DNA of 64,000 bases. It comes from Candidatus Peregrinibacteria bacterium (lineage in GTDB: Bacteria; Patescibacteriota; Gracilibacteria; UBA1369; GCA-2718715). Under the pieces are notes generated by a model, which worked only from the letters and a program-made list of their open reading frames with translations, was not told the DNA's origin and ran no database searches. This document shows, piece after piece, positions 12,366 through 39,407 of this stretch (position 1 is the stretch's first letter; each line of letters begins with the position of its first letter). The stretch is taken from the NCBI GenBank assembly GCA_014240275.1, contig JAAZXH010000008.1:32653-96652 (forward strand), read 5' to 3'. A program made the translations under genes and the position numbers.

Positions 12366-13832
12366 TTATTCTTCAAGCAAATCAATGGAATCATACATTT
12401 TTTGAACGAAATCCTTATATTTAGGATCAAACTTAAACTCTATACTCTTATCATCAAGCTGCCTAGTCATTTTTTCAACCAGGGGAGAATTTATAGCAAC
12501 ATTTGTACTTTCGAACCCAACAGGTGATACAATAATCAAAACATTATCTTGAGTAACAGGCTCTAATGCAAACAAATACGAGTCCTCATCACGAATATAA
12601 TACCAACTAGCAGGATAAGACAAAGAAAAACCTAAAGCAGGAGTCTCAAACAACCTAAAACCTTCTGGCAAACTATTAACTTGAATCTTGTCGTTGCGTA
12701 AATTAATGAATGTTAATGGACGGTCATAAACATCATTAACACCAGAACTTAATTCCCAATCCGTATTAACACCTTCAACAAAAGTAGCCTTAACTAAATA
12801 ACCATTAGTATAATTGACCAACACTCTTGCTTCTTTATTCTCGTTATCAATAAAAATCAAATAAAAGTGTTTATTATCAGTGAACGCAAAGCTGACAGCT
12901 TTAGAAAAAGTCGGAACAACGTTATCAACTTGAGATAAAAAGTCTTCAACAATATCTTTATTTTCAAAATTCAAACCTTCTTCAACAGGTTCTTCTGCAG
13001 GAACCTCTTGTTGAGAAGAATTATCGTCAGGTGCAATAGGAGCAAACTCTAGCTCAGTTGCAATACCATTCGCCTCTTCGATAACTTCTGAATTAAGAAA
13101 TTGACCAGTTGGAGTGAAATAATTTAAATTAACTAAGAAATTATCAAACTGTTTAACAGAAGATTCAGAAGTCAAAAGACGTAAATCCATTTCATATAAA
13201 ACATTCTGATTTTGAGTTAAATACAAAAGCTGAGTATCAGAGGCTCTATAGAACTTATAGGCATTACTTGCAATATTTAAATTATCAAAACTAAAATCAG
13301 GATATTTATTAGCAACAAACAAATCAATGTCTTGCTCTACACTCAGTGGGTGTAACTGCAAACTTAAAACAGAAGGATCGTCTAAAAAAGAAATAGTTAA
13401 ATTCGGAAAATTTGATTGCAACTGCATTTGTTCTGACAAATCAAACGAGATACCAAAACTTGGCAGAGTTTCAAGGGTCGAAACCTCTTTATTTAAATCT
13501 TCTAGAACATCAATTTGATTAACAAAAATTAAATCAACAGGTTTATTGTTTAATTGTTTTTCTAAATAATTACCAGAAATTCTAATTTGTTTATCTATAT
13601 ATAAGTCTAAATCGTGCAAAACACTATTTAAATAAACTCGATTTTTTGATTCAGTGATCATTAAGTGAGTAGCATCAAGATCAGATAAATCTGAAGTTAA
13701 GGACTCTATCTCACCAACGAATGTCTTAGTAACAACCGTATCTAAATATGGCTCAGGGGCATCTGATTTAAAACAACCAGTCATTAAAGTTAATGAAGAA
13801 ATAAGACAAAAAGAAATAAATGCTTTATTCAT
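12366..13832 (-). CDS. Hypothetical lipoprotein (acidic; possible PsbP-like segments)
   Basis: Signal peptide with lipobox LMTG-C; GISFDL and GFSLSYPASW motifs. Confidence 0.6.
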   Translation of the reverse strand: MNKAFISFCLISSLTLMTGCFKSDAPEPYLDTVVTKTFVGEIESLTSDLSDLDATHLMITESKNRVYLNSVLHDLDLYIDKQIRISGNYLEKQLNNKPVDLIFVNQIDVLEDLNKEVSTLETLPSFGISFDLSEQMQLQSNFPNLTISFLDDPSVLSLQLHPLSVEQDIDLFVANKYPDFSFDNLNIASNAYKFYRASDTQLLYLTQNQNVLYEMDLRLLTSESSVKQFDNFLVNLNYFTPTGQFLNSEVIEEANGIATELEFAPIAPDDNSSQQEVPAEEPVEEGLNFENKDIVEDFLSQVDNVVPTFSKAVSFAFTDNKHFYLIFIDNENKEARVLVNYTNGYLVKATFVEGVNTDWELSSGVNDVYDRPLTFINLRNDKIQVNSLPEGFRLFETPALGFSLSYPASWYYIRDEDSYLFALEPVTQDNVLIIVSPVGFESTNVAINSPLVEKMTRQLDDKSIEFKFDPKYKDFVQKMYDSIDLLEE

Positions 13833-29345: not shown

Positions 29346-30317
29346 ATGTTTGATTTTCTCAAAAACTACCTAACAAACAAAGAATACGAAGTAATACAAA
29401 AAAGATACTTTGAAAACAAAACTCTTCAAGCCATAGGAGATGAAATGGCTCTAACTAGAGAAAGGATACGACAAATCCAAAACAACGGTATCAACAAACT
29501 CAAACGAGTAATTGAAACAACTAAAGTTCAATTAGTAATCGAAAAAATAGAACAACACTTGCAAAAAAACAGCAACCTAAGTTGCTACAAAACCCTCCAA
29601 AACAATTTCCAAGAACATACAATTGGTGAATTGGAACTAATTGTAGATGCATCTCAAAACATTGAGACAATCAAAAAAACCCAAAACTTCAAACATTCAT
29701 GCGGCTTAAACAACAAAATAGATAAAAACAAACTCAATCTAATTCATAAAAAAATCATCCAAGAACTGAAAACAAACAATAGACCAATCTGTACAAACAA
29801 ATTTGTAATTGAAATACAAAAAAAACAAGATACATACACAAGTCAAAAAACAATTCAAGGGATTATTGAAATATCAGAACAAACAAAAATATTAGATAAT
29901 AAAGTCGGTCACATAAGCTGTAGGGAAGTTAACCCAAAAAGCATCAAAGATAAAGCTATTATAGTACTAGAAAGGGCACATCAACCACTACACTTCCGCG
30001 ATATAAATCAAAAAATACACCTAGAAGAATTTGACAGAAAAACAGTAACTCTAGAAGCAGTCCACAATGAGCTAATTCGCTATGAAGATTTTGTATTAGT
30101 TGGAAGAGGACTTTATGCTTTATCTAAATGGGGGTACACAAAAGGGACAGTAAAAGATATAATCCATCAAATACTAAAAGAACATGGTGTATTATCAAAG
30201 AAACTAATAGTTGCAAAAGTATTAGAGCAAAGACAAGTAAAAATCGGTACGATTAGTTTAAACCTACAAAAATACCCAGAATTTAAAAGAGTTGGAAGAG
30301 CCACTTACTCACTCTGA
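29346..30317 (+). CDS. Sigma-70 region-4-like HTH protein with C-terminal HARE-HTH (RNAP delta-like) domain
   Basis: TLQAIGDEMALTRERIRQIQ; PLHFRDI; VHNELIR..FVLVGRGLYAL..WGY. Confidence 0.75.
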   Translation: MFDFLKNYLTNKEYEVIQKRYFENKTLQAIGDEMALTRERIRQIQNNGINKLKRVIETTKVQLVIEKIEQHLQKNSNLSCYKTLQNNFQEHTIGELELIVDASQNIETIKKTQNFKHSCGLNNKIDKNKLNLIHKKIIQELKTNNRPICTNKFVIEIQKKQDTYTSQKTIQGIIEISEQTKILDNKVGHISCREVNPKSIKDKAIIVLERAHQPLHFRDINQKIHLEEFDRKTVTLEAVHNELIRYEDFVLVGRGLYALSKWGYTKGTVKDIIHQILKEHGVLSKKLIVAKVLEQRQVKIGTISLNLQKYPEFKRVGRATYSL

Positions 30318-30728
30318 TTGTAAAGTTCCTTTAAAATTATCATAAACTACATTCAACTCTGTTAAAGACATTTTTTCAGGGTCAGCGCCCAACCTATTCA
30401 ACATTAAAGTGGCATTAAATCGCTTTTGTATAATTGAAAGACGATCTGAACCAAAAATAAAACTAAAAGATTTTATTTTTGCAAATATAGAATTCACTAA
30501 AACAATTAATTTTTTACGTCCTAAAACTTGAGATTTTTTAGGAGGAGTATTATTTTTACTATTAGAGTTGGTTTGTGAATTACTTGAGTCAGTAACTGGA
30601 ATATTACTCACTATAGTTTTTAAATCTGAACTTAAATCAGAAAGAAATTGTTCAGGATTTAATTGAGACGTATCATCATCTATAGACTTATCCTTATCGG
30701 ATAGACTTTCTATATTTTTAAGATTCAT
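30309..30728 (-). CDS. Hypothetical protein (~139 aa)
   Basis: Open frame filling the gap between two + strand genes. ATG at 30728 chosen; the longer ORF call overlaps the divergent gene. Confidence 0.45.
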   Translation of the reverse strand: MNLKNIESLSDKDKSIDDDTSQLNPEQFLSDLSSDLKTIVSNIPVTDSSNSQTNSNSKNNTPPKKSQVLGRKKLIVLVNSIFAKIKSFSFIFGSDRLSIIQKRFNATLMLNRLGADPEKMSLTELNVVYDNFKGTLQSE

Positions 30729-30756
30729 ATAAAATGTTAATGTCTTAAATATAAAT

Positions 30757-32229
30757 ATGAAGAAATTTACGAAAATTCTACTTACTATAATAATAGCAAC
30801 AAACCTATACTCAACACAAGCCCAAGAAAACAACCCAATAAAATCCCCAAAACTTATCAAGGCTGGTGAACCTAGTAATTTTTCTATAAATGACCAAAAC
30901 TCAAAAACTAAATGGGATTTTGGTAACGGTAATAAAGACACAGGTGCAAATGTTGCACACACATACAATAAAGCCGGTATATATGAATTGAAAATAGAAA
31001 ACCAAAACCAAACAAACACACAAGAAATTCAAGTCTACCAAGAAATAAACCTATTGATTCATGATAAAAATAATTTAGAAAAATATATTAACAACACACA
31101 AACTTTAGCAAACAACAACCAAAACCAAATCATAGCATTAGACACAAACAAGCATACCAACCCGTTTATAAACCAAGAAATAATTCTTGAGAAACTAACT
31201 CAACTACAAGCTATAAATTTTGAGAAAATAGACAACATCATAATCTGGACAGACAATAATAACGGAATAAACCCTTTAATTCAATATTTAACAAAAAACC
31301 AAGAAATTAAAGTCGATAAAAAAAACATCTATATAGTAAATAATAAATTTGATAACAAAACACGATTAATAAGACAACAAAGAAGATTAAAAGCTAAAAA
31401 CATGTATGTTATTAAAAGCCCTAATCTATACAGCTTAGCAGATAGTCAAAACACCAAAGAATTTGAAAAAAAACTTAAAGAAGGACTACTAGAATACGTA
31501 GAAATCAAACCAGAAAACTATATATATAATCCACTAAAATTCTTATCACTTTCGATAGATTATTTAAGTGAAAAAGGAATACCAGAAAACCTAATTCAAC
31601 TCCTATTGCTAATACCCCTGATTTGCTTCTGGATTAGCTTTTTAAAACAAATAATAGGCCTATCAACAATAGGAGTATATCTGCCAATTGTTATTACACT
31701 CTGCTTTCTGATCTTAGGAATTTCAGTTGGGACAATCACAATGGCAATCGTATTTTTTGCAAGTAGCCTGAGCTCATACCTACTTAATAAAGTGCGAATG
31801 TTATACAGTCCAAAAACTTCGCTAACAATAGTAATTACCAGCCTAATATATACTATGAGCTTGAGCCTTTTAATTAAATTTAAAATTCTAGATATATATA
31901 CAGGCCTAATGACAGTCTTCCCTACAATAATCATGTTAACTATGGCAGAAAAATTTGCCAATATTGTAAATTCTAAAGGATTAAAAAGTTGTTTTTTTAC
32001 AACACTTGAAACGTATTTAGTTATAATACTAACATACATACTTTGTGGAGGTACTTATTACTATCAATCCAAAGTTTATTCATTCCAATTCTTCAATCAA
32101 CACATTATCAACAGTCCAGAATTAATAATACTGCTAAGTGTATTTATATTTATTATTGGTAGATATACAGGGCTACAAGTGAGCGAATACTTCAGATTTA
32201 GAAAAATTTTAGATAACATCGAAGAATGA
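30757..32229 (+). CDS. PKD-domain protein with C-terminal 7TM domain (7TM_transglut-like)
   Basis: Signal peptide, PKD motif WDFGNG...HTYNKAGIY, then LLIP, KQIIGLSTIGVYLP, VFPTIIM..MAEKF and GRYTGLQVSEYFRF, typical of the 7TM domain found beside ATP-grasp ligases. Confidence 0.82.
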   Translation: MKKFTKILLTIIIATNLYSTQAQENNPIKSPKLIKAGEPSNFSINDQNSKTKWDFGNGNKDTGANVAHTYNKAGIYELKIENQNQTNTQEIQVYQEINLLIHDKNNLEKYINNTQTLANNNQNQIIALDTNKHTNPFINQEIILEKLTQLQAINFEKIDNIIIWTDNNNGINPLIQYLTKNQEIKVDKKNIYIVNNKFDNKTRLIRQQRRLKAKNMYVIKSPNLYSLADSQNTKEFEKKLKEGLLEYVEIKPENYIYNPLKFLSLSIDYLSEKGIPENLIQLLLLIPLICFWISFLKQIIGLSTIGVYLPIVITLCFLILGISVGTITMAIVFFASSLSSYLLNKVRMLYSPKTSLTIVITSLIYTMSLSLLIKFKILDIYTGLMTVFPTIIMLTMAEKFANIVNSKGLKSCFFTTLETYLVIILTYILCGGTYYYQSKVYSFQFFNQHIINSPELIILLSVFIFIIGRYTGLQVSEYFRFRKILDNIEE

Positions 32230-34592
32230 TCAAATTTAAAGACATACTAGGAATAAACAGCAGGTATCTTGATTTCATCCTAAAATACAACAGTCAAGAA
32301 AAAATGAAATTTGCAGATTCCAAACTAAAGACAAAACAATATCTCCAAGCCAGAGGGATACCAGTACCAAAACTACATGCAATAATTGACTCTTACGAGA
32401 ATTTAAAAAAATTTGACTTTAACAACTTGCCGAATTCAACTGTTATAAAACCCAACCAAGGATCAAGAGGAAGAGGCATTATTCCTTTTAAACAAATCAA
32501 AACTAACGACTTTATAACAGTTAATGAGAAACATTATACTACAGATGAAATTAAATCTCACATCGCAGATATCATAGATGGTAAATATTCACTAGGAAAC
32601 ATAAGAGATAAAGCATTTTTTGAACAAAGAATAATAACTGACAAATCCTTACAAGCATTATCATACAAAGGACTACCAGATATAAGAATAATTGTATACA
32701 AAGAAACCCCAGCAATGGCAATGTTAAGACTACCAAACAAACAATCAGACGGAAAAGCAAACCTTGATGCAGGTGCATACGGATTTGGTATAGACCTAGC
32801 CACCGGTAAATTAACATATATGATAAAAGACAAACAGATTTATCAAAACTATCAAGAATTAATTCAAATACCAAATGATTTTAAAGTGCCATATTTTGAT
32901 GAAATTCTAAATATCGTATGTGAATGCCAAAAACATACCGGACTAGGATTTTTAGGGTGTGATATTGCAATAGATCAAAACAACGGACCAGTATTAATCG
33001 AAACCAATGCGAGGCCTGGTTTATCAATTCAACTCGCAAATAAAGCTGGTCTCAAAAAAAGACTTATTCAAATAAACCAAATCAAAACTAAAAATATTAG
33101 TCAAAAAATTCAAACAGCAAAATCATTATTTTCTGATAAAAGTAGTAAGCCAAACAAGGAAAATAAAGAGAGAGTTTTAGGCTCCTATGAAAAAGTCAAC
33201 TTAATCGATCACAAAAAAATTCTAACCGGAAAGATCAACCCTACATCTAATAAAAACTTTATACCCCAAGAACTATATAAGCAGTTAAAAATTCAAGAAG
33301 AAAATCCAAAAATTAAAATCAGACTTGGTGGTTTAAGACAATCGTTAATTTTTGAGGTTAAAAAAGGTATTAAAGAAATAGAAATTGGGATAGGTAATAA
33401 TCAGAACTACCTATATAATCACACAAAAAAAGAGCAAAATAAATTACCTTCAATCAAAGTTAAAAAGCCAAAATTTGAATTCTACTTTAAACCACAAATA
33501 AATTATGGAGAAGTCGACTTCCAAATACATCAAATCAGTAAAAAGTTAAAAATCCTAAGTAAACTTACACCTAAAAACCTAGAGTCTGAAATTAAAAAAT
33601 TTAAAGAAAACACAAATTACAATCCACAGTTCGAATATGAAGACTTCAGTGACTTTTTATTTGAAAACATTAAAAAATTAAGAAACATTAAGGTCGAGGG
33701 AGATGTTTTAGGACAAATATTTTTCAAAAAAATTAAATACTTAGAAAAAAACCTAAAAATGATTGCATGTATCGGAACAGAACAATATAGCGAAGCAAGT
33801 TTAGATATCTATCGTGCTCCAACTATAAAAGAATTAGAATTAGCTGAAAAACACAAAAAAAATTCTAAACAGTACGACCAGTCAACTAATCTTTCTGCTA
33901 ATGAGGCAAAAAAAATATTCTTAAAATTTGCAGAAAGCTCAAAACTTAAAAATATAGAGGTACAAATTAAAAATGATATGATTTCAGATGTAAGTGTAAA
34001 CAAAAAGGGAACAATTTTTTTAAACAAAAATGCAAAATTCAACGAACAAAGAATTGAAAAATTAATAGCTCATGAAATTGAAACTCACATATACACAGCT
34101 ATTAACGGTAAAGACCAACCCTATCAAATCTTTCAAGATGGGCTAGCTAATTATTTATACACCCAAGAAGGTCTAGCAGTATACAACCAAGAAAAACAAT
34201 TAGGTTTTAAAGAACCATGCCATGGAGCCAATACACTAATAAATAATAACTTAGTATACCAAAATTCCTTTGCAAACGGATATAAAGCACTAAAAAAACA
34301 AGGCTTATCAGATAATGAAGCTCTAAAAGCCTGCTTAAAAACCAAACGTGGCCTAAATGACACTAGTCAAAAAGGTGGGAGCTTTAAACCTTCTGTCTAT
34401 TTTATAGGAGTTCAAATGATCACAAAATTCCTAAACGAAAAAGGAGATTATAACAACTTATATATAGGGAAAATAAACATTGAAGACATCAAGCTTATTA
34501 AACAGGTGAAATCTTTAAATCCAGCCAAATTACTACCAAGATGTTATCAAAAAATTCAACGCATCAACAAGGAGGCGTCACCAAATGAATAA
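32226..34592 (+). CDS. Fusion: ATP-grasp (alpha-L-glutamate ligase-like / ATPgrasp_ST) + degenerate aspartyl-protease-like domain + DUF1704/QEGLA metallopeptidase
   Basis: LGINSR, DSKLKTK, VIKPNQGSRGRGI, GLPDIRII, GKANL, GFLGCDI, IETNARPGLSIQLAN; C-terminal HEIETH (34071-34088), QEGLA (34164-34178), KRG and LYIGK. Confidence 0.85.
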   Translation: MIKFKDILGINSRYLDFILKYNSQEKMKFADSKLKTKQYLQARGIPVPKLHAIIDSYENLKKFDFNNLPNSTVIKPNQGSRGRGIIPFKQIKTNDFITVNEKHYTTDEIKSHIADIIDGKYSLGNIRDKAFFEQRIITDKSLQALSYKGLPDIRIIVYKETPAMAMLRLPNKQSDGKANLDAGAYGFGIDLATGKLTYMIKDKQIYQNYQELIQIPNDFKVPYFDEILNIVCECQKHTGLGFLGCDIAIDQNNGPVLIETNARPGLSIQLANKAGLKKRLIQINQIKTKNISQKIQTAKSLFSDKSSKPNKENKERVLGSYEKVNLIDHKKILTGKINPTSNKNFIPQELYKQLKIQEENPKIKIRLGGLRQSLIFEVKKGIKEIEIGIGNNQNYLYNHTKKEQNKLPSIKVKKPKFEFYFKPQINYGEVDFQIHQISKKLKILSKLTPKNLESEIKKFKENTNYNPQFEYEDFSDFLFENIKKLRNIKVEGDVLGQIFFKKIKYLEKNLKMIACIGTEQYSEASLDIYRAPTIKELELAEKHKKNSKQYDQSTNLSANEAKKIFLKFAESSKLKNIEVQIKNDMISDVSVNKKGTIFLNKNAKFNEQRIEKLIAHEIETHIYTAINGKDQPYQIFQDGLANYLYTQEGLAVYNQEKQLGFKEPCHGANTLINNNLVYQNSFANGYKALKKQGLSDNEALKACLKTKRGLNDTSQKGGSFKPSVYFIGVQMITKFLNEKGDYNNLYIGKINIEDIKLIKQVKSLNPAKLLPRCYQKIQRINKEASPNE

Positions 34593-35666: not shown

Positions 35667-36779
35667 CTAAAAACTAGTGCTAAATTCTTTTTGATTAGGA
35701 TCAGCAACACCAGTATATTTTATTATACATAAAGTTATATCATCCAGCTGCAAAGAACCATTGGCGTAAATATCTAAATCTAATTTTATTTTTTCATAAA
35801 CTTCATTAACAGTAGGCAAATGGGAATATTTAGATATTAGATCTACTAGGCCAGTTGGACCAAACAATTTTCCATTTTGATCTTTCAATTCGGTCACTCC
35901 ATCTGATGCCAAGACCATAACGTCGCCATCTACTAGTTGTAATGATTTTTGCTCTAACTTCTTTGAAATATCTTCGAGTAAACCAAGAGCTACACCCTTA
36001 GTATCAAAAGATTCAACAACTGCTTCAGATTGTCTAAATATATGAATTTTTTCATAACCACAAGGATAATACAGAACCTTGCCTTGATCATTCAAATTCA
36101 TAAATACGGAACTTAAAAACATTGATGCTGAAGTATTTGACTTTAAAAAAGAATTCAATAATACAATTAGTTTATCTAATACAAGAGACTGATTAGTTAA
36201 AAACATAGTTTGAACCATAATCATAATCAGTGCAGCAGGGGCACCATGACCTGTGGCATCAGCTAAATAAAGGTCAAAACCAGATTTAGTAGGCCTAAAA
36301 TTAAACATATCTCCACCTAATTCATCAGCAGAACGGTGCTTAACCAAAAACTGATAATTTTTAAGTTTTAACGTATTAGAAGGTAATAAGTTTTCTTGAA
36401 TGTGTTGGGCCATAGTTAGCTCTGTATACATTCGTTGACCAGATTTAATATAGGAAGCTACATTTTCAAAATTATAAACTAAATCATTCACAAAAAAACA
36501 TATCAAACCATATTCATCTAAACCAAGATCAGGTAATTTCTGATAAGGTTTTTTGGCTATAATATTTGCAATTTGATTCGCAATTAATTGTAATTTAACA
36601 ACAAAAGATCTCCAAATAGCAAAAGGAAGCAAAACTATTACTATACAGGAATAATACAACAAAAACATAGCATCGAACTTCAATATTTCTAAAAAAGATA
36701 ACATCAAAGGAAGAAACATCACCACAATCAGTAGAAGAATTTTATAAAAAACTCGATGTGAATATAAAACAAATTGCAT
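35667..36779 (-). CDS. Membrane-anchored PP2C/SpoIIE (RsbU-like) serine phosphatase
   Basis: Two TM helices, HAMP-like linker, AQHIQENLLP, GGDMF, ADATGHG, SDGVTE, DDIT. Confidence 0.9.
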   Translation of the reverse strand: MQFVLYSHRVFYKILLLIVVMFLPLMLSFLEILKFDAMFLLYYSCIVIVLLPFAIWRSFVVKLQLIANQIANIIAKKPYQKLPDLGLDEYGLICFFVNDLVYNFENVASYIKSGQRMYTELTMAQHIQENLLPSNTLKLKNYQFLVKHRSADELGGDMFNFRPTKSGFDLYLADATGHGAPAALIMIMVQTMFLTNQSLVLDKLIVLLNSFLKSNTSASMFLSSVFMNLNDQGKVLYYPCGYEKIHIFRQSEAVVESFDTKGVALGLLEDISKKLEQKSLQLVDGDVMVLASDGVTELKDQNGKLFGPTGLVDLISKYSHLPTVNEVYEKIKLDLDIYANGSLQLDDITLCIIKYTGVADPNQKEFSTSF

Positions 36780-36780
36780 A

Positions 36781-37134
36781 TTAAATTAGTGATTTAATAA
36801 AAACATCAAGGTCTTTTTGATACTCTATTAATTCAAAAACACCTAAATTGTCAAATATATCATATACTTGAGGTTGAGCTTGAGATAAAACCAACTTTTG
36901 TTTATTGTTTAATAACTTTTCTGATAAACTTATTAAATATCCAACATATTGTGAATTTACATATGACAAGTATTTTAAATCAAATACTAAATTGGGAACA
37001 TGTAAATCTAAAACATATTTATCGATTTTTTTTTGAATTTCATTAATACAGGTGTTATCAATTTCACCTTTAAATTGTAACAAAACATAAGGGTCAGAGT
37101 GAACCGGTTTATTAACTTCAATTAATTCGTACAT
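36781..37134 (-). CDS. STAS-domain anti-sigma factor antagonist (RsbV/SpoIIAA-like)
   Basis: GEID, DLKYLSYVNS (phospho-acceptor Ser position), VYDIFDNLG. Confidence 0.88.
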   Translation of the reverse strand: MYELIEVNKPVHSDPYVLLQFKGEIDNTCINEIQKKIDKYVLDLHVPNLVFDLKYLSYVNSQYVGYLISLSEKLLNNKQKLVLSQAQPQVYDIFDNLGVFELIEYQKDLDVFIKSLI

Positions 37135-37172: not shown

Positions 37173-39407
37173 TTATAATAAATCCTTGACCATAAAATAC
37201 TCTTTACGTGCAGACAACATATGGTAAGCCTTTAACAAAGTTTCTAACAAATCCTTATCGTTGTCATAATCAGCATATTCATTATTCAATGATAGCTCCA
37301 AGATAGAAACTAAGTGGGACTTAAAAGACTGATTTTCTAAACGAGATAAAACCATACGCATTTTAGAATAATCTAAATCGGATAAACTAAATGCAATTGG
37401 CTTATCAACATAGGTACTAAATAACAACTTAGCAGTAACAGAACTAAACCTCTCAACACTATCAAACATAGCAGACAAGTCATAATTTAAAGCTAAAACT
37501 AAAGCTTCTAACTGAACTTCAACCTCAGAACTATTCAAGTTTTTATAAATCAAACTATTAAATTTACTAGATTTATAATATAAATGTAAATCAGCTAATT
37601 CATAAAAAACAGTTCGCTTATCTAAATTCAAACTATTTACAAAACTTATAACATTGTCATCATCAACCAACTTAAATAGTTCATAAGTATCCTTAAACAA
37701 CTGTAGATCCATGATTTCAGTTAAATTACGTAAATTTAATTCAATCACAGCGATATCAGAAGAAAGCATTGCTTGAAATAAATAAATTTCCGCCAGTACA
37801 CGCTTCGACCTTCCATTTACAGATAAATCTCGAGCTTGATTTAATAACTTATTTAAAGTAAAAGGTCTAGCCCTTAACTGATCAATGTTATTCTTTAATA
37901 TATGAGATATAACATCAAAAATTCTTACATCATCAATATAGTTATACTCTAACAAACCGAGTAACTCATCAAGATAATCTAAATCCGCATATTTCTTAAA
38001 TAACTCTAAGATCTCTAACTGCAAATCTTTATCCAAATGTGGATGAGCAACTAAATATTTAATTAAAAATTGAAAATCAATATAAGAAGGATTTTGATGT
38101 AAAATAGAAATAGCATTTAATTTCGTACTTAATTTTTTTGATTTCAATAATGCCTTCTTAGGAGATCTTAAATAATCTTTACTGAATTTAGTAGTAGCAA
38201 AAGTAACAATACCAAGCATCAATAACGAAACAACATTTAAAAACATATCTAAATTCAAAAACTCTAGAATAAATATAATCAAAAAGGAACTAATAATCAT
38301 TCCAAGTGGTTTAACAACACCCTCTAAAAATTCCATTACATAACTACGAGAAGAATGTTTAAAAGAATAGAATGTAGCATGATATGCATTTAAGAATGTA
38401 ACGTCAGAAATATCATGGTTAGTTTTAACAAACAGAAGGCTTAAAAAACCAGGGTTAGTAAACATCGAAATTAAAGAAAAAATCATAATAATAGGCGACA
38501 GCAATAAAGACTTAATAACACCTAAAAAATTCATTACCCTAGAAGCTAAAAAGAACTGGTAAACCAAAGTCATCCCACCAATAATCATATGAAAAAAACC
38601 TAAGTCAAAAGCCATCGAATGATCATCATGACCATGATCAGCGAATTGTGAAACAAAATCTAAAAACTGAAATTCCAAAACATAAAAAAATGCAAATTGG
38701 AATAAAATTATAATAGCTAAATAGGTTAAACCAGAATAATTTAAAATATCATTAAATTTAACTCGACTATGCTTTGCATGACTATGAGAAATAACTTTAG
38801 CTGGAACACTAACCGATCTATCATTAAAAATTAATAGAATAGGCAAGTTCATTAAAACTAAAATAGAACTAAGTGCTAATAAAGATGATAATTCAAAGAA
38901 AGTAGAAAAAACCGAAATCAAAATACCAGCCAATACAGTACCAATGGTTTCAGCACTTTCTATAAGTGGAAAAATACGAGTACTTTGACTTGGTGAGAAT
39001 AAACTTTCAAAAAATAATAATTTGGAAATTTTCATTTGAGACCAAAAAACTGCTAAAGTAAAAAGCAGTAAGCTAGCAAAAATCCAAAAATTCGAAAGAA
39101 AGAAATAAGAAGACAAAATCAAAGCCAAACTACACAAAAAACTCATACCTATAATCAATAAGGTACGATTTTTTGAACTTACAAAATTTTTAAATAAGAA
39201 AAAACCGAAGATTGTTAACAATCCATAGACAATAAAGAGTCTTGGTATGATAGTTAAATCAAAAACATCAATTGCTAAAACAATTAATACAGTCCAAGAA
39301 ATTACAAAAACCAAGCGTGAAACTAGAGCTAAAGACCAACAAACTAAAAAATCCTTAATTTCACTACGATTTAATCTAAAATGACTTAATATATTCAAAA
39401 AAAACAA
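37173..39407 (-). CDS. MFS-fold transporter (TLC/NTT nucleotide-translocase-like) with C-terminal helical (HEAT-like) region
   Basis: About 12 TM helices in the first ~410 aa; LFSPSQSTRIFPLI..AETIG and EGVVKPLG motifs; soluble helical tail. Start codon uncertain (TTG). Confidence 0.6.
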   Translation of the reverse strand: MFFLNILSHFRLNRSEIKDFLVCWSLALVSRLVFVISWTVLIVLAIDVFDLTIIPRLFIVYGLLTIFGFFLFKNFVSSKNRTLLIIGMSFLCSLALILSSYFFLSNFWIFASLLLFTLAVFWSQMKISKLLFFESLFSPSQSTRIFPLIESAETIGTVLAGILISVFSTFFELSSLLALSSILVLMNLPILLIFNDRSVSVPAKVISHSHAKHSRVKFNDILNYSGLTYLAIIILFQFAFFYVLEFQFLDFVSQFADHGHDDHSMAFDLGFFHMIIGGMTLVYQFFLASRVMNFLGVIKSLLLSPIIMIFSLISMFTNPGFLSLLFVKTNHDISDVTFLNAYHATFYSFKHSSRSYVMEFLEGVVKPLGMIISSFLIIFILEFLNLDMFLNVVSLLMLGIVTFATTKFSKDYLRSPKKALLKSKKLSTKLNAISILHQNPSYIDFQFLIKYLVAHPHLDKDLQLEILELFKKYADLDYLDELLGLLEYNYIDDVRIFDVISHILKNNIDQLRARPFTLNKLLNQARDLSVNGRSKRVLAEIYLFQAMLSSDIAVIELNLRNLTEIMDLQLFKDTYELFKLVDDDNVISFVNSLNLDKRTVFYELADLHLYYKSSKFNSLIYKNLNSSEVEVQLEALVLALNYDLSAMFDSVERFSSVTAKLLFSTYVDKPIAFSLSDLDYSKMRMVLSRLENQSFKSHLVSILELSLNNEYADYDNDKDLLETLLKAYHMLSARKEYFMVKDLL

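Follow-up and report, generated by a model that had tools for sequence, protein, structure and literature searches.

An overlapping gene pair codes for a membrane protein and a three-domain enzyme

We analyzed a 64,000-nucleotide (nt) stretch of DNA from a Candidatus Peregrinibacteria bacterium (the window; contig JAAZXH010000008.1 of GenBank assembly GCA_014240275.1), which belongs to a source genome assembly of 0.85 Mb that has a GC content of 35% and is 79% complete. The subject of this report is a pair of same-strand (+) genes in this window that are linked by an ATGA stop/start overlap, where the sequence reads GAAGAATGATC. As listed in Table 1, the first gene codes for a membrane protein with a seven-transmembrane (7TM) domain, which we refer to as the partner, and the second codes for a soluble enzyme that contains, in order, an ATP-grasp ligase domain, a degenerate retropepsin-like domain and a MATCAP-type metallocarboxypeptidase domain. 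The nearest named relatives come from Gammaproteobacteria, among them Pseudomonas aeruginosa, where they are encoded by the rloABC operon (Lormand et al., mBio 2025; PMC12239564), and the gammaproteobacterial examples that we used for comparison were taken from a plasmid collection (Legionella adelaidensis plasmid L083 and Aeromonas caviae L084). A first-pass annotation had viewed the gene pair as a possible system for adding and removing C-terminal residues, and the overlapping open reading frames (ORFs) that it described, as well as all of the motifs that it quoted, are present in the translations. An alternative genetic code is not needed to read these genes; translation table 25 merely extended ORFs beyond their natural ends.

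Table 1. Features of the gene pair, with window coordinates and amino acid (aa) positions in the encoded proteins
Feature	Coordinates	Strand	Evidence
Membrane partner gene (RloB-like), 490 aa: signal-like N-terminus, PKD, conserved ectodomain, 7TM_transglut, short basic tail, -EE end	30757..32229	+	ORF list, Pfam, NCBIfam, alignment, hydropathy
PKD domain, aa 30-87, presumed extracellular	30844..31017	+	PF00801 E 5.8e-9, PF18911 E 9.9e-9
Conserved ectodomain, aa 92-260, at position of RloB's inactive transglutaminase domain	31030..31536	+	Alignment columns
7TM_transglut domain, aa 261-484	31537..32208	+	PF14402 E 2.1e-21, 77 bits vs cut-off 25
Presumed cytosolic tail RYTGLQVSEYFRFRKILDNIEE; terminal EE = 32221-32226	32161..32226	+	Alignments, hydropathy
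Stop/start overlap ATGA of both genes	32226..32229	+	Sequence
Soluble three-domain enzyme gene, 788 aa	32226..34592	+	ORF list, Pfam, NCBIfam, structure search
RloC/RimK-type ATP-grasp ligase domain, aa 15-284	32268..33077	+	Pfam, NCBIfam, conservation, structure search
Degenerate retropepsin-like domain (RloA/RimB/DUF785-type), aa 312-402; N338-P-T (33237-33245) replacing D-T/S-G	33159..33431	+	Alignment, model, structure search
MATCAP/DUF1704/QEGLA metallocarboxypeptidase domain, aa 431-778; HEIETH 34071-34088, QEGLA 34164-34178	33516..34559	+	Pfam, NCBIfam, alignment, Foldseek

The fusion is real and recurs among Patescibacteria

A scan of species-representative genomes found 394 related stretches, from which 80 loci were kept, so that together with the window they form a close set of 81 systems; the near relatives carry the labels Peribacteria, Peregrinibacteria, Gracilibacteria or Patescibacteria. 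At the database level 1838 of the 8000 scored candidates reach E <= 1e-3, and the 120 relatives among the matches listed are all 767-813 aa long with both end domains present. The module is also common in Patescibacteria as a whole, since 128 of the 401 genomes in an even sample of this phylum, representing 96 of 320 genera, hold a relative at E <= 1e-10. The genomes of these organisms are tiny and retain few systems that could be dispensed with. Elsewhere in the phylum sample, most matches span the ligase and retropepsin domains only, with MATCAP present as a separate gene or not seen.

The first-pass annotation had named an assembly chimera among the outcomes that would refute its reading. 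This is ruled out by the recurrence of the fusion in the 394 stretches and by junction-bridging contigs from other sequencing runs. Specifically, contigs from public runs X1 and X2 run across the boundary between the genes and both boundaries between the domains, free of joints and indels (run X1 may be the source sample, and the rows for runs X4 and X5 are identical), and near-identical DNA is present in marine and seawater metagenome runs from several studies.

Two conserved active sites flank a degenerate protease domain

The enzyme had initially been described as an intact ATP-grasp ligase, followed by a retropepsin in which the catalytic Asp is replaced and by a DUF1704 carboxypeptidase, and all three of these assignments hold up. 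The ligase domain matches the Pfam family ATPgrasp_ST over residues 15-284 (E 1.6e-64) and contains the motifs VIKPNQGSRGRG, PDIRII, GKANL, LGCDIAID and LIETNARPG. The NCBIfam model TIGR02291 (alpha-L-glutamate ligase-like) aligns residues 3-287 with model positions 8-294 of 317 (E 4e-79, 265.9 bits relative to a curated equivalog cut-off of 314.2), and the ATP-grasp protein of the Aeromonas rloABC operon is 36% identical to the window ligase domain over 298 aa (E 1e-61). Similarity to Escherichia coli RimK is local only (E 1e-4), and the cut-off of the RimK family TIGR00768 is not reached (38.4 bits relative to 143.4). A match to the tubulin tyrosine ligase (TTL) model PF03133 is the shared ATP-grasp core, as it covers residues 241-282 only (model positions 236-277 of 292, 24.6 bits). 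Residues K75, R154, D246, E259 and N261 are invariant in all 81 systems, with D246, E259 and N261 aligning with the D..E-x-N of RimK; we take K75 (the Lys in the VIKP strand), D246, and E259 with N261 (the E-x-N) to be the ATP/Mg-binding residues.

An AlphaFold model of the full enzyme, built from an alignment of 40 relatives, has a mean predicted local distance difference test (pLDDT) score of 87.7, and a Foldseek search with this model returned human MATCAP first, followed by ArgX, RimK (including the RimK-RpsF complex), cyanophycin synthetase and D-Ala-D-Ala ligases. ArgX and RimK act on the C-terminal Glu of a protein. A hydropathy scan found no hydrophobic segment in the enzyme.

The middle segment contains the sequence GKINPTSNK and, when modelled alone, has a pLDDT of 92.3. 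The best structural matches to this model are Lpg0085/DUF785 (Z 10.7, 89 residues aligned) and P. aeruginosa RloA2 (9g59; Z 10.3, root-mean-square deviation 2.4, 90 of 91 residues aligned), followed by retroviral proteases (Z 7-9) and Ddi1. At the sequence level, the middle segment of the window enzyme has no Pfam match, including to PF05618, the Pfam model Asp_protease_2 matches this domain in 17 of 41 relatives, and a profile search against PDB sequences gave weak Ddi1 matches alone (E 0.26-1.8). No RloA-type signal peptide is found on the domain, which is internal to the soluble enzyme. At the position of the catalytic Asp the close set has D in 44 systems, N in 29 and another residue in 8, and 17 of the systems retain a canonical D[TS]G.

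The MATCAP family PF08014 matches residues 459-778 on model positions 4-351 of 365 (E 5.2e-42, 144.5 bits relative to a gathering score of 27) and also matches all 40 aligned relatives, while the QEGLA model TIGR02421 gives E 9.5e-44 and 150.1 bits, which does not reach its equivalog cut-off of 338.65. The translation contains the motifs AHEIETH and TQEGLA, and in an alignment with human MATCAP the HEIETH corresponds to HEIGTH and the QEGLA to EEGLA, including the EGLA glutamate; human MATCAP (7z5g) is matched by Foldseek at E 3e-12 with a TM score of 0.66 normalised to the target. The HExxxH metal site (H616, E617 and H621) and, downstream of it, E648, G649 and A651 do not vary in any of the 81 systems. 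The invariance of the ligase and carboxypeptidase sites, together with a D[TS]G motif that is left in so few of the same systems, argues that two active enzyme domains flank a decaying protease domain.

A very improbable reading of this arrangement is that there is a single meaningful activity, for example that the carboxypeptidase matures or degrades the product of the ligase once in a biosynthetic pathway without any reversible cycle. A ligase beside a peptidase is indeed also typical of peptide natural-product and cyanophycin-like pathways, and cyanophycin synthetase is among the structural neighbours. However, this reading sits poorly with both active sites being invariant throughout the close set and with the nearest characterized systems, RimK with RimB and the tubulin ligases with MATCAP, being opposing pairs.

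The partner is an RloB-like 7TM protein with a conserved Glu end

The 7TM partner of the first-pass annotation was recovered by Pfam, with the PKD and 7TM_transglut domains given in Table 1. The NCBIfam RloB model NF052267 matches its 7TM part only (E 1.5e-11, 43.8 bits relative to a cut-off of 900), and PF14400, the inactive transglutaminase domain that is found in the Legionella and Aeromonas RloB proteins, has no Pfam match in the window partner. The ectodomain segment between PKD and the membrane is conserved across 41 aligned partners; it has no family match in Pfam and no usable match in the ESM Atlas. A crude hydropathy scan of the partner gives six peaks, one of which is long enough for two helices, and a signal peptide was read from the sequence alone. 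The C-terminus of the partner is probably cytosolic, because the N-terminus is signal-like, the PKD domain should lie outside, the number of helices is odd and the 22-residue tail is basic with 4 K/R. The tail ends in ...DNIEE. An E-x-x-R-F-R/K juxtamembrane motif is common to the partners of this clade and to gammaproteobacterial RloB, whereas the terminal EE is specific to the clade.

Linkage of the two genes is nearly complete. In 74 of the 80 loci the gene directly upstream, in the same orientation, codes for a partner homologue. Of the six loci without one, four offer <150 nt of sequence on that side, so that adjacency among informative loci is 74 of 76. The ends of these 74 adjacent partners are EE in 43 cases, EEE in 25 and EEEE in 3 (thus 2-4 Glu in 71 of 74), with one ending in -VE and two having no Glu end. 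The tail Glu codons comprise 138 GAA and 36 GAG, and the Glu tail is kept where the intergenic gap is 42-422 nt. In loci L077 and L078 and in their relative G273 the partner is encoded elsewhere in the genome, and these three unlinked partners end in -GEE, -EEEE and -AEEE. A by-product of the ATGA overlap or of a ribosome-binding site is ruled out as the source of the EE by the gaps of up to 422 nt, the use of both codons and the unlinked genes. Since the Glu end is kept under each of these circumstances, it reflects selection on the protein itself and does not arise from the overlap of the genes.

At these three sites (L125:440-1366, L126:543-1469 and L127:3047-3973) the gene immediately preceding the unlinked Glu-tailed partner codes for a class IV aminotransferase (PF01063, E 2e-46 to 5e-52). 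The class IV aminotransferase family includes enzymes that use or make glutamate.

The enzyme may extend and trim the Glu tail of its partner

We propose that this module is a patescibacterial system of the RloB-RloC type in which the enzyme extends and trims the cytosolic Glu tail of its partner, a reading built from sequence comparison and analogy to which we give a probability of roughly 0.45. In this model the place of RloA would be taken by two cytosolic domains fused to the ligase, the dead retropepsin and the MATCAP-type carboxypeptidase. The soluble enzyme would dock at the cytosolic face of the 7TM protein on the E-x-x-R-F-R/K motif, and its ATP-grasp domain would use ATP to add residues, most likely alpha-linked Glu, to the -EE tail much as RimK does on the -EE end of S6. 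The MATCAP domain would then take residues off the free C-terminus singly, as TMCP1/2 do on tubulin tails, and the dead retropepsin may have been kept as a poly-Glu-binding or dimerisation scaffold. Tail length could report the supply of ATP or glutamate or could tune the membrane protein, with an envelope or osmotic-stress role as in Pseudomonas rloABC.

Prediction of a complex between the enzyme and partner residues 279-490, each with its own alignment, lends weak support to such docking. The predicted complex scored 0.42 (individual runs 0.42, 0.43 and 0.42) and the best of three controls scored 0.00; the mark of the benchmark for this score was passed by 58 of 80 solved complexes and, among 110 mismatched pairs, by 2, and passing scores of <=0.60 were given by 7 of the 80 solved complexes and by both passing mismatched pairs. 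The runs agreed in >=80% of contacts with a partner pLDDT of >=74, and no interface was given.

The -EE end of the partner as a substrate had already been raised in the first-pass annotation. This speculative idea is strengthened by the 2-4 Glu ends described above, their use of both codons and their retention in unlinked genes; the function assigned to the tail goes beyond these data and is tempered by homologous systems that have no Glu tail.

The tail need not be the substrate, and the enzyme could instead modify another acidic-ended protein (a ribosomal protein, for example), a small molecule or a cell-wall precursor, with the 7TM protein acting as a sensor that regulates or localizes it. 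RimK and RimB provide a precedent for a cytosolic ligase and protease of this kind (PMC12239564), the best Pfam model, ATPgrasp_ST, is annotated as 'sugar-transfer associated', and envelope phenotypes have been reported for rlo mutants and for a Shewanella mutant in a 7TM inactive-transglutaminase protein. Other candidate ends do exist. Only 5 of the 744 ORFs of >=100 aa in the source genome end in EE relative to 2.9 expected, a count that favours the tail of the partner as the substrate. The four besides the partner are methionyl-tRNA synthetase, a VTT/DedA protein, a pilin-like protein (DQEEE) and an unassigned 488-aa ORF (12366-13832, -). None of these four is linked to the operon, however, and the partner tail is conserved far above chance. 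Ribosomal protein S6 (PF01250) was not found in the source genome, although at 79% completeness of the assembly this does not prove its absence. On this balance we judge another substrate to be unlikely.

Relatives without a Glu tail limit the proposed function

Tail modification of the partner was weighed with a broader comparison set, for which 35 further loci were fetched to give 116 systems (Table 2). The aligned motif of the two-domain proteins is DTG in 22 of 22, with 20 of these showing DTGA or DTGT. Together with the four other-family fusions, these make 26 patescibacterial relatives with a known non-Glu tail that all keep DTG, as opposed to 63 of 78 Glu-tailed systems in which D[TS]G is lost, a contrast that counts for the tail reading. 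The suggestion in the first-pass annotation that the original protease was inactivated and replaced fits this comparison, given that the two-domain relatives all keep DTG, while D[TS]G is gone from 64 of the 81 close fusions and the MATCAP site is intact in every one of them.

Table 2. Domain, motif and tail states in the comparison set of 116 systems
Enzyme	Retropepsin motif	Partner tail	Systems
Fused	D[TS]G lost	Glu	62
Two-domain	D[TS]G intact	Non-Glu	22
Fused	D[TS]G intact	Glu	15
Fused	D[TS]G intact	Non-Glu	4
Fused	D[TS]G lost	Non-Glu	4
Broken fusion	D[TS]G lost	Glu	1
Fused	D[TS]G lost	Partner not adjacent or not seen	6 (3 of these later found Glu-tailed)
Fused	D[TS]G intact	Partner tail not seen	2

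A quick maximum-likelihood tree was made for the ligase domain, with the two gammaproteobacterial proteins as the root. It groups 88 fusions in a single clade (100% support), whose members are Glu-tailed except for L002, L056 and L079. The minimum number of changes on this tree is 4 for the tail state, 4 for the fusion state and 12 for D[TS]G. Loci L114, L118, L119 and L120, one family from the phylum sample, contain three-domain fusions with DTG and partners with basic ends (...HDKSA, ...KKHRA), and they look like an intermediate between the two-domain and the Glu-tailed forms. In their sister L117 the motif is DTS and the partner ends in -EE.

Several observations weigh against the proposed function of the tail. 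First, L056 and L079, which have no tail, and L002, which ends in -VE, lie inside the Glu-tailed clade and have intact enzymes in all three cases. Second, the Glu tail is missing in the 22 two-domain relatives, in the 4 fusions of another family, in L115 and in the 2 gammaproteobacterial RloB proteins; the ligase must therefore have another acceptor in such relatives. Third, the TIGR02291, TIGR02421 and NF052267 scores are all under their curated cut-offs. Fourth, the co-variation of tail and DTG has only 3-4 independent contrasts and cannot reach significance, and for this reason we make no statistical claim about it. Finally, the Pseudomonas protease is periplasmic, which points to an exported product over a cytosolic tail. 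RloA is a secreted retropepsin that cuts runs of >=8 Glu, and the lethality that results from loss of all three RloA proteases is rescued by deleting rloB or rloC (PMC12239564). This rescue indicates that RloB and RloC together make what RloA must clear, and together with the cleavage of poly-Glu it counts in favour of the proposed function.

The lineage of L056 and L079, which also includes L129 and L128, has a partner of 248-257 aa that consists of the 7TM region without an ectodomain and ends in -KNH or -KNN. All catalytic residues of the enzyme are kept in this lineage.

Because the two-domain, other-fusion and gammaproteobacterial partners have non-Glu ends, the RloB/RloC pair works without a Glu tail in many lineages, with the E-x-x-R-F-R/K motif as the shared feature, and these systems show that the ligase needs no Glu tail in general. 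This leads to the main rival of tail modification, namely that the ligase makes free poly-alpha-glutamate or a short peptide at the membrane, which the 7TM protein would export or anchor and the MATCAP domain would recycle or size, with the -EE serving as a docking handle, pseudo-substrate or primer. The need for another acceptor in the tailless relatives speaks for such a free product, as does the E-x-x-R-F motif being universal where EE is not. Furthermore, RimK makes peptides of poly-alpha-L-glutamate, and the authors of the RloA study themselves raise the option of free poly-Glu as the target of that secreted protease (PMC12239564). We nevertheless consider a free product somewhat less likely than tail modification, as a mere docking handle could be placed away from the very C-terminus and would have no need to range from 2 to 4 Glu, an exopeptidase suits a defined free end, and decay of the endopeptidase motif is mostly limited to Glu-tailed systems.

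Genomic surroundings of the gene pair

The gene pair stands alone, with a 439-nt gap upstream and a convergent queA gene downstream (PF02547, E 8.5e-103) that overlaps the last 37 nt of the enzyme gene (34556-34592). A scan for promoters and terminators gave a number of sites no higher than in shuffled sequences. The upstream neighbour (29346-30317, +) codes for a 323-aa protein with Sigma70 region 4 (E 2.8e-14) and HARE-HTH (E 5.7e-8) domains. An opposite-strand ORF of 236 aa (30309-31019, -) occupies the 439-nt gap and the first 263 nt of the partner gene; its product has a hydrophobic start and a Ser/Asn-rich middle, and it may be a shadow ORF. Farther downstream, the regions 35667-37134 (-) and 37173-39407 (-) code for a SpoIIE-type PP2C phosphatase (E 1e-29) and a STAS-domain protein (E 5e-14) adjoining a 744-aa multi-helix membrane protein with a weak major facilitator superfamily match, a group that looks like a partner-switching module.

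Novelty and comparison with known systems

Our literature searches turned up no published account of the MATCAP fusion, the decayed retropepsin or the Glu-tailed partner, while the component families are known and rloABC was described in 2025. Specifically, a literature search found no paper that joins ATP-grasp with DUF1704, or MATCAP with a bacterial ATP-grasp enzyme; Iyer et al. 2009 may already describe such a link. To our knowledge, reversible C-terminal glutamylation in bacteria is known only for ribosomal protein S6, by RimK and RimB. The Legionella effector SdeA is the one other polyglutamylated protein that is cited in this context (PMC12239564). If our proposal is correct, it would provide a first function for bacterial MATCAP homologues and a link to the tubulin-modifying enzymes, and the module could reveal what RloC-type ligases make. 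The rloABC system is clinically relevant. In its broadest form, which we put forward tentatively, the proposal would amount to a bacterial 'tail code' in which the cytosolic C-terminus of a 7TM envelope protein is reversibly Glu-extended by an ATP-grasp writer and shortened by a fused MATCAP eraser. Such a pairing would predate, and may have seeded, the tubulin tyrosination/glutamylation cycle, and the Glu tail would have arisen along with the change from a retropepsin that is endo-acting to a MATCAP that is exo-acting.

The trio of ATP-grasp ligase, 7TM protein and aspartyl protease that the first-pass annotation mentioned for proteobacteria now has a name, rloABC (PMC12239564). Like the window, the rloABC operons have a gene for a 7TM_transglut protein that is followed by a TIGR02291-type ATP-grasp gene with an overlapping stop/start, and they share the RloA-type retropepsin fold and the juxtamembrane E-x-x-R-F. 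In the window, however, the retropepsin is fused to the ligase without a signal peptide and with DTG lost, and a MATCAP domain has been added. The partner ectodomain also differs in that it consists of PKD and a family-less domain in place of Transglut_i_TM, and the partner ends in -EE, in contrast to the ...AKARS and ...PGKDK ends of the Legionella and Aeromonas RloB proteins. Also related to the window module are the two-domain patescibacterial proteins of ATP-grasp and retropepsin, which have an upstream 7TM partner and corresponding ligase and retropepsin domains. In these the MATCAP is a separate gene, which 6 of the 22 loci have within the stretch that was fetched, either adjacent or at a distance of up to ~4 kb, and DTG is kept in all 22, the partner tail is basic and a Glu tail is found in 0 of 22.

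RimK extends the C-terminus of RpsF with Glu, which RimB takes off again, and RimK is also described as synthesising poly-alpha-L-glutamate peptides in the introduction of the rloABC paper (PMC12239564). This system resembles the window module in that a cytosolic ATP-grasp ligase is found with a retropepsin-like peptidase and in that the target of RimK is the -EE end of a protein, and it differs in that the window genes are membrane-linked and the peptidase would be a metallo-exopeptidase.

Another bacterial protein in which MATCAP is fused, here to a glutamate-related hydrolase fold, is encoded in a plasmid record of Vibrio sp. HDW18 (L085:3056-5047), where a 663-aa QEGLA protein combines an N-formylglutamate amidohydrolase-like domain (PF05013, E 2e-11) with MATCAP (E 5.6e-102) and has no ATP-grasp gene nearby.

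In eukaryotes, the human metallocarboxypeptidases TMCP1/MATCAP and TMCP2, which have an HExxxH site, take C-terminal Tyr and Glu off tubulin tails and shorten poly-Glu chains (PMC10499314). Together with TTL/TTLL they share with the window module the MATCAP HExxxH and EGLA Glu, an opposing ATP-grasp ligase and an acidic -EE tail. In the window, by contrast, both domains are in one polypeptide, the ligase is RloC/RimK-like and the presumed target is a membrane protein, not tubulin.

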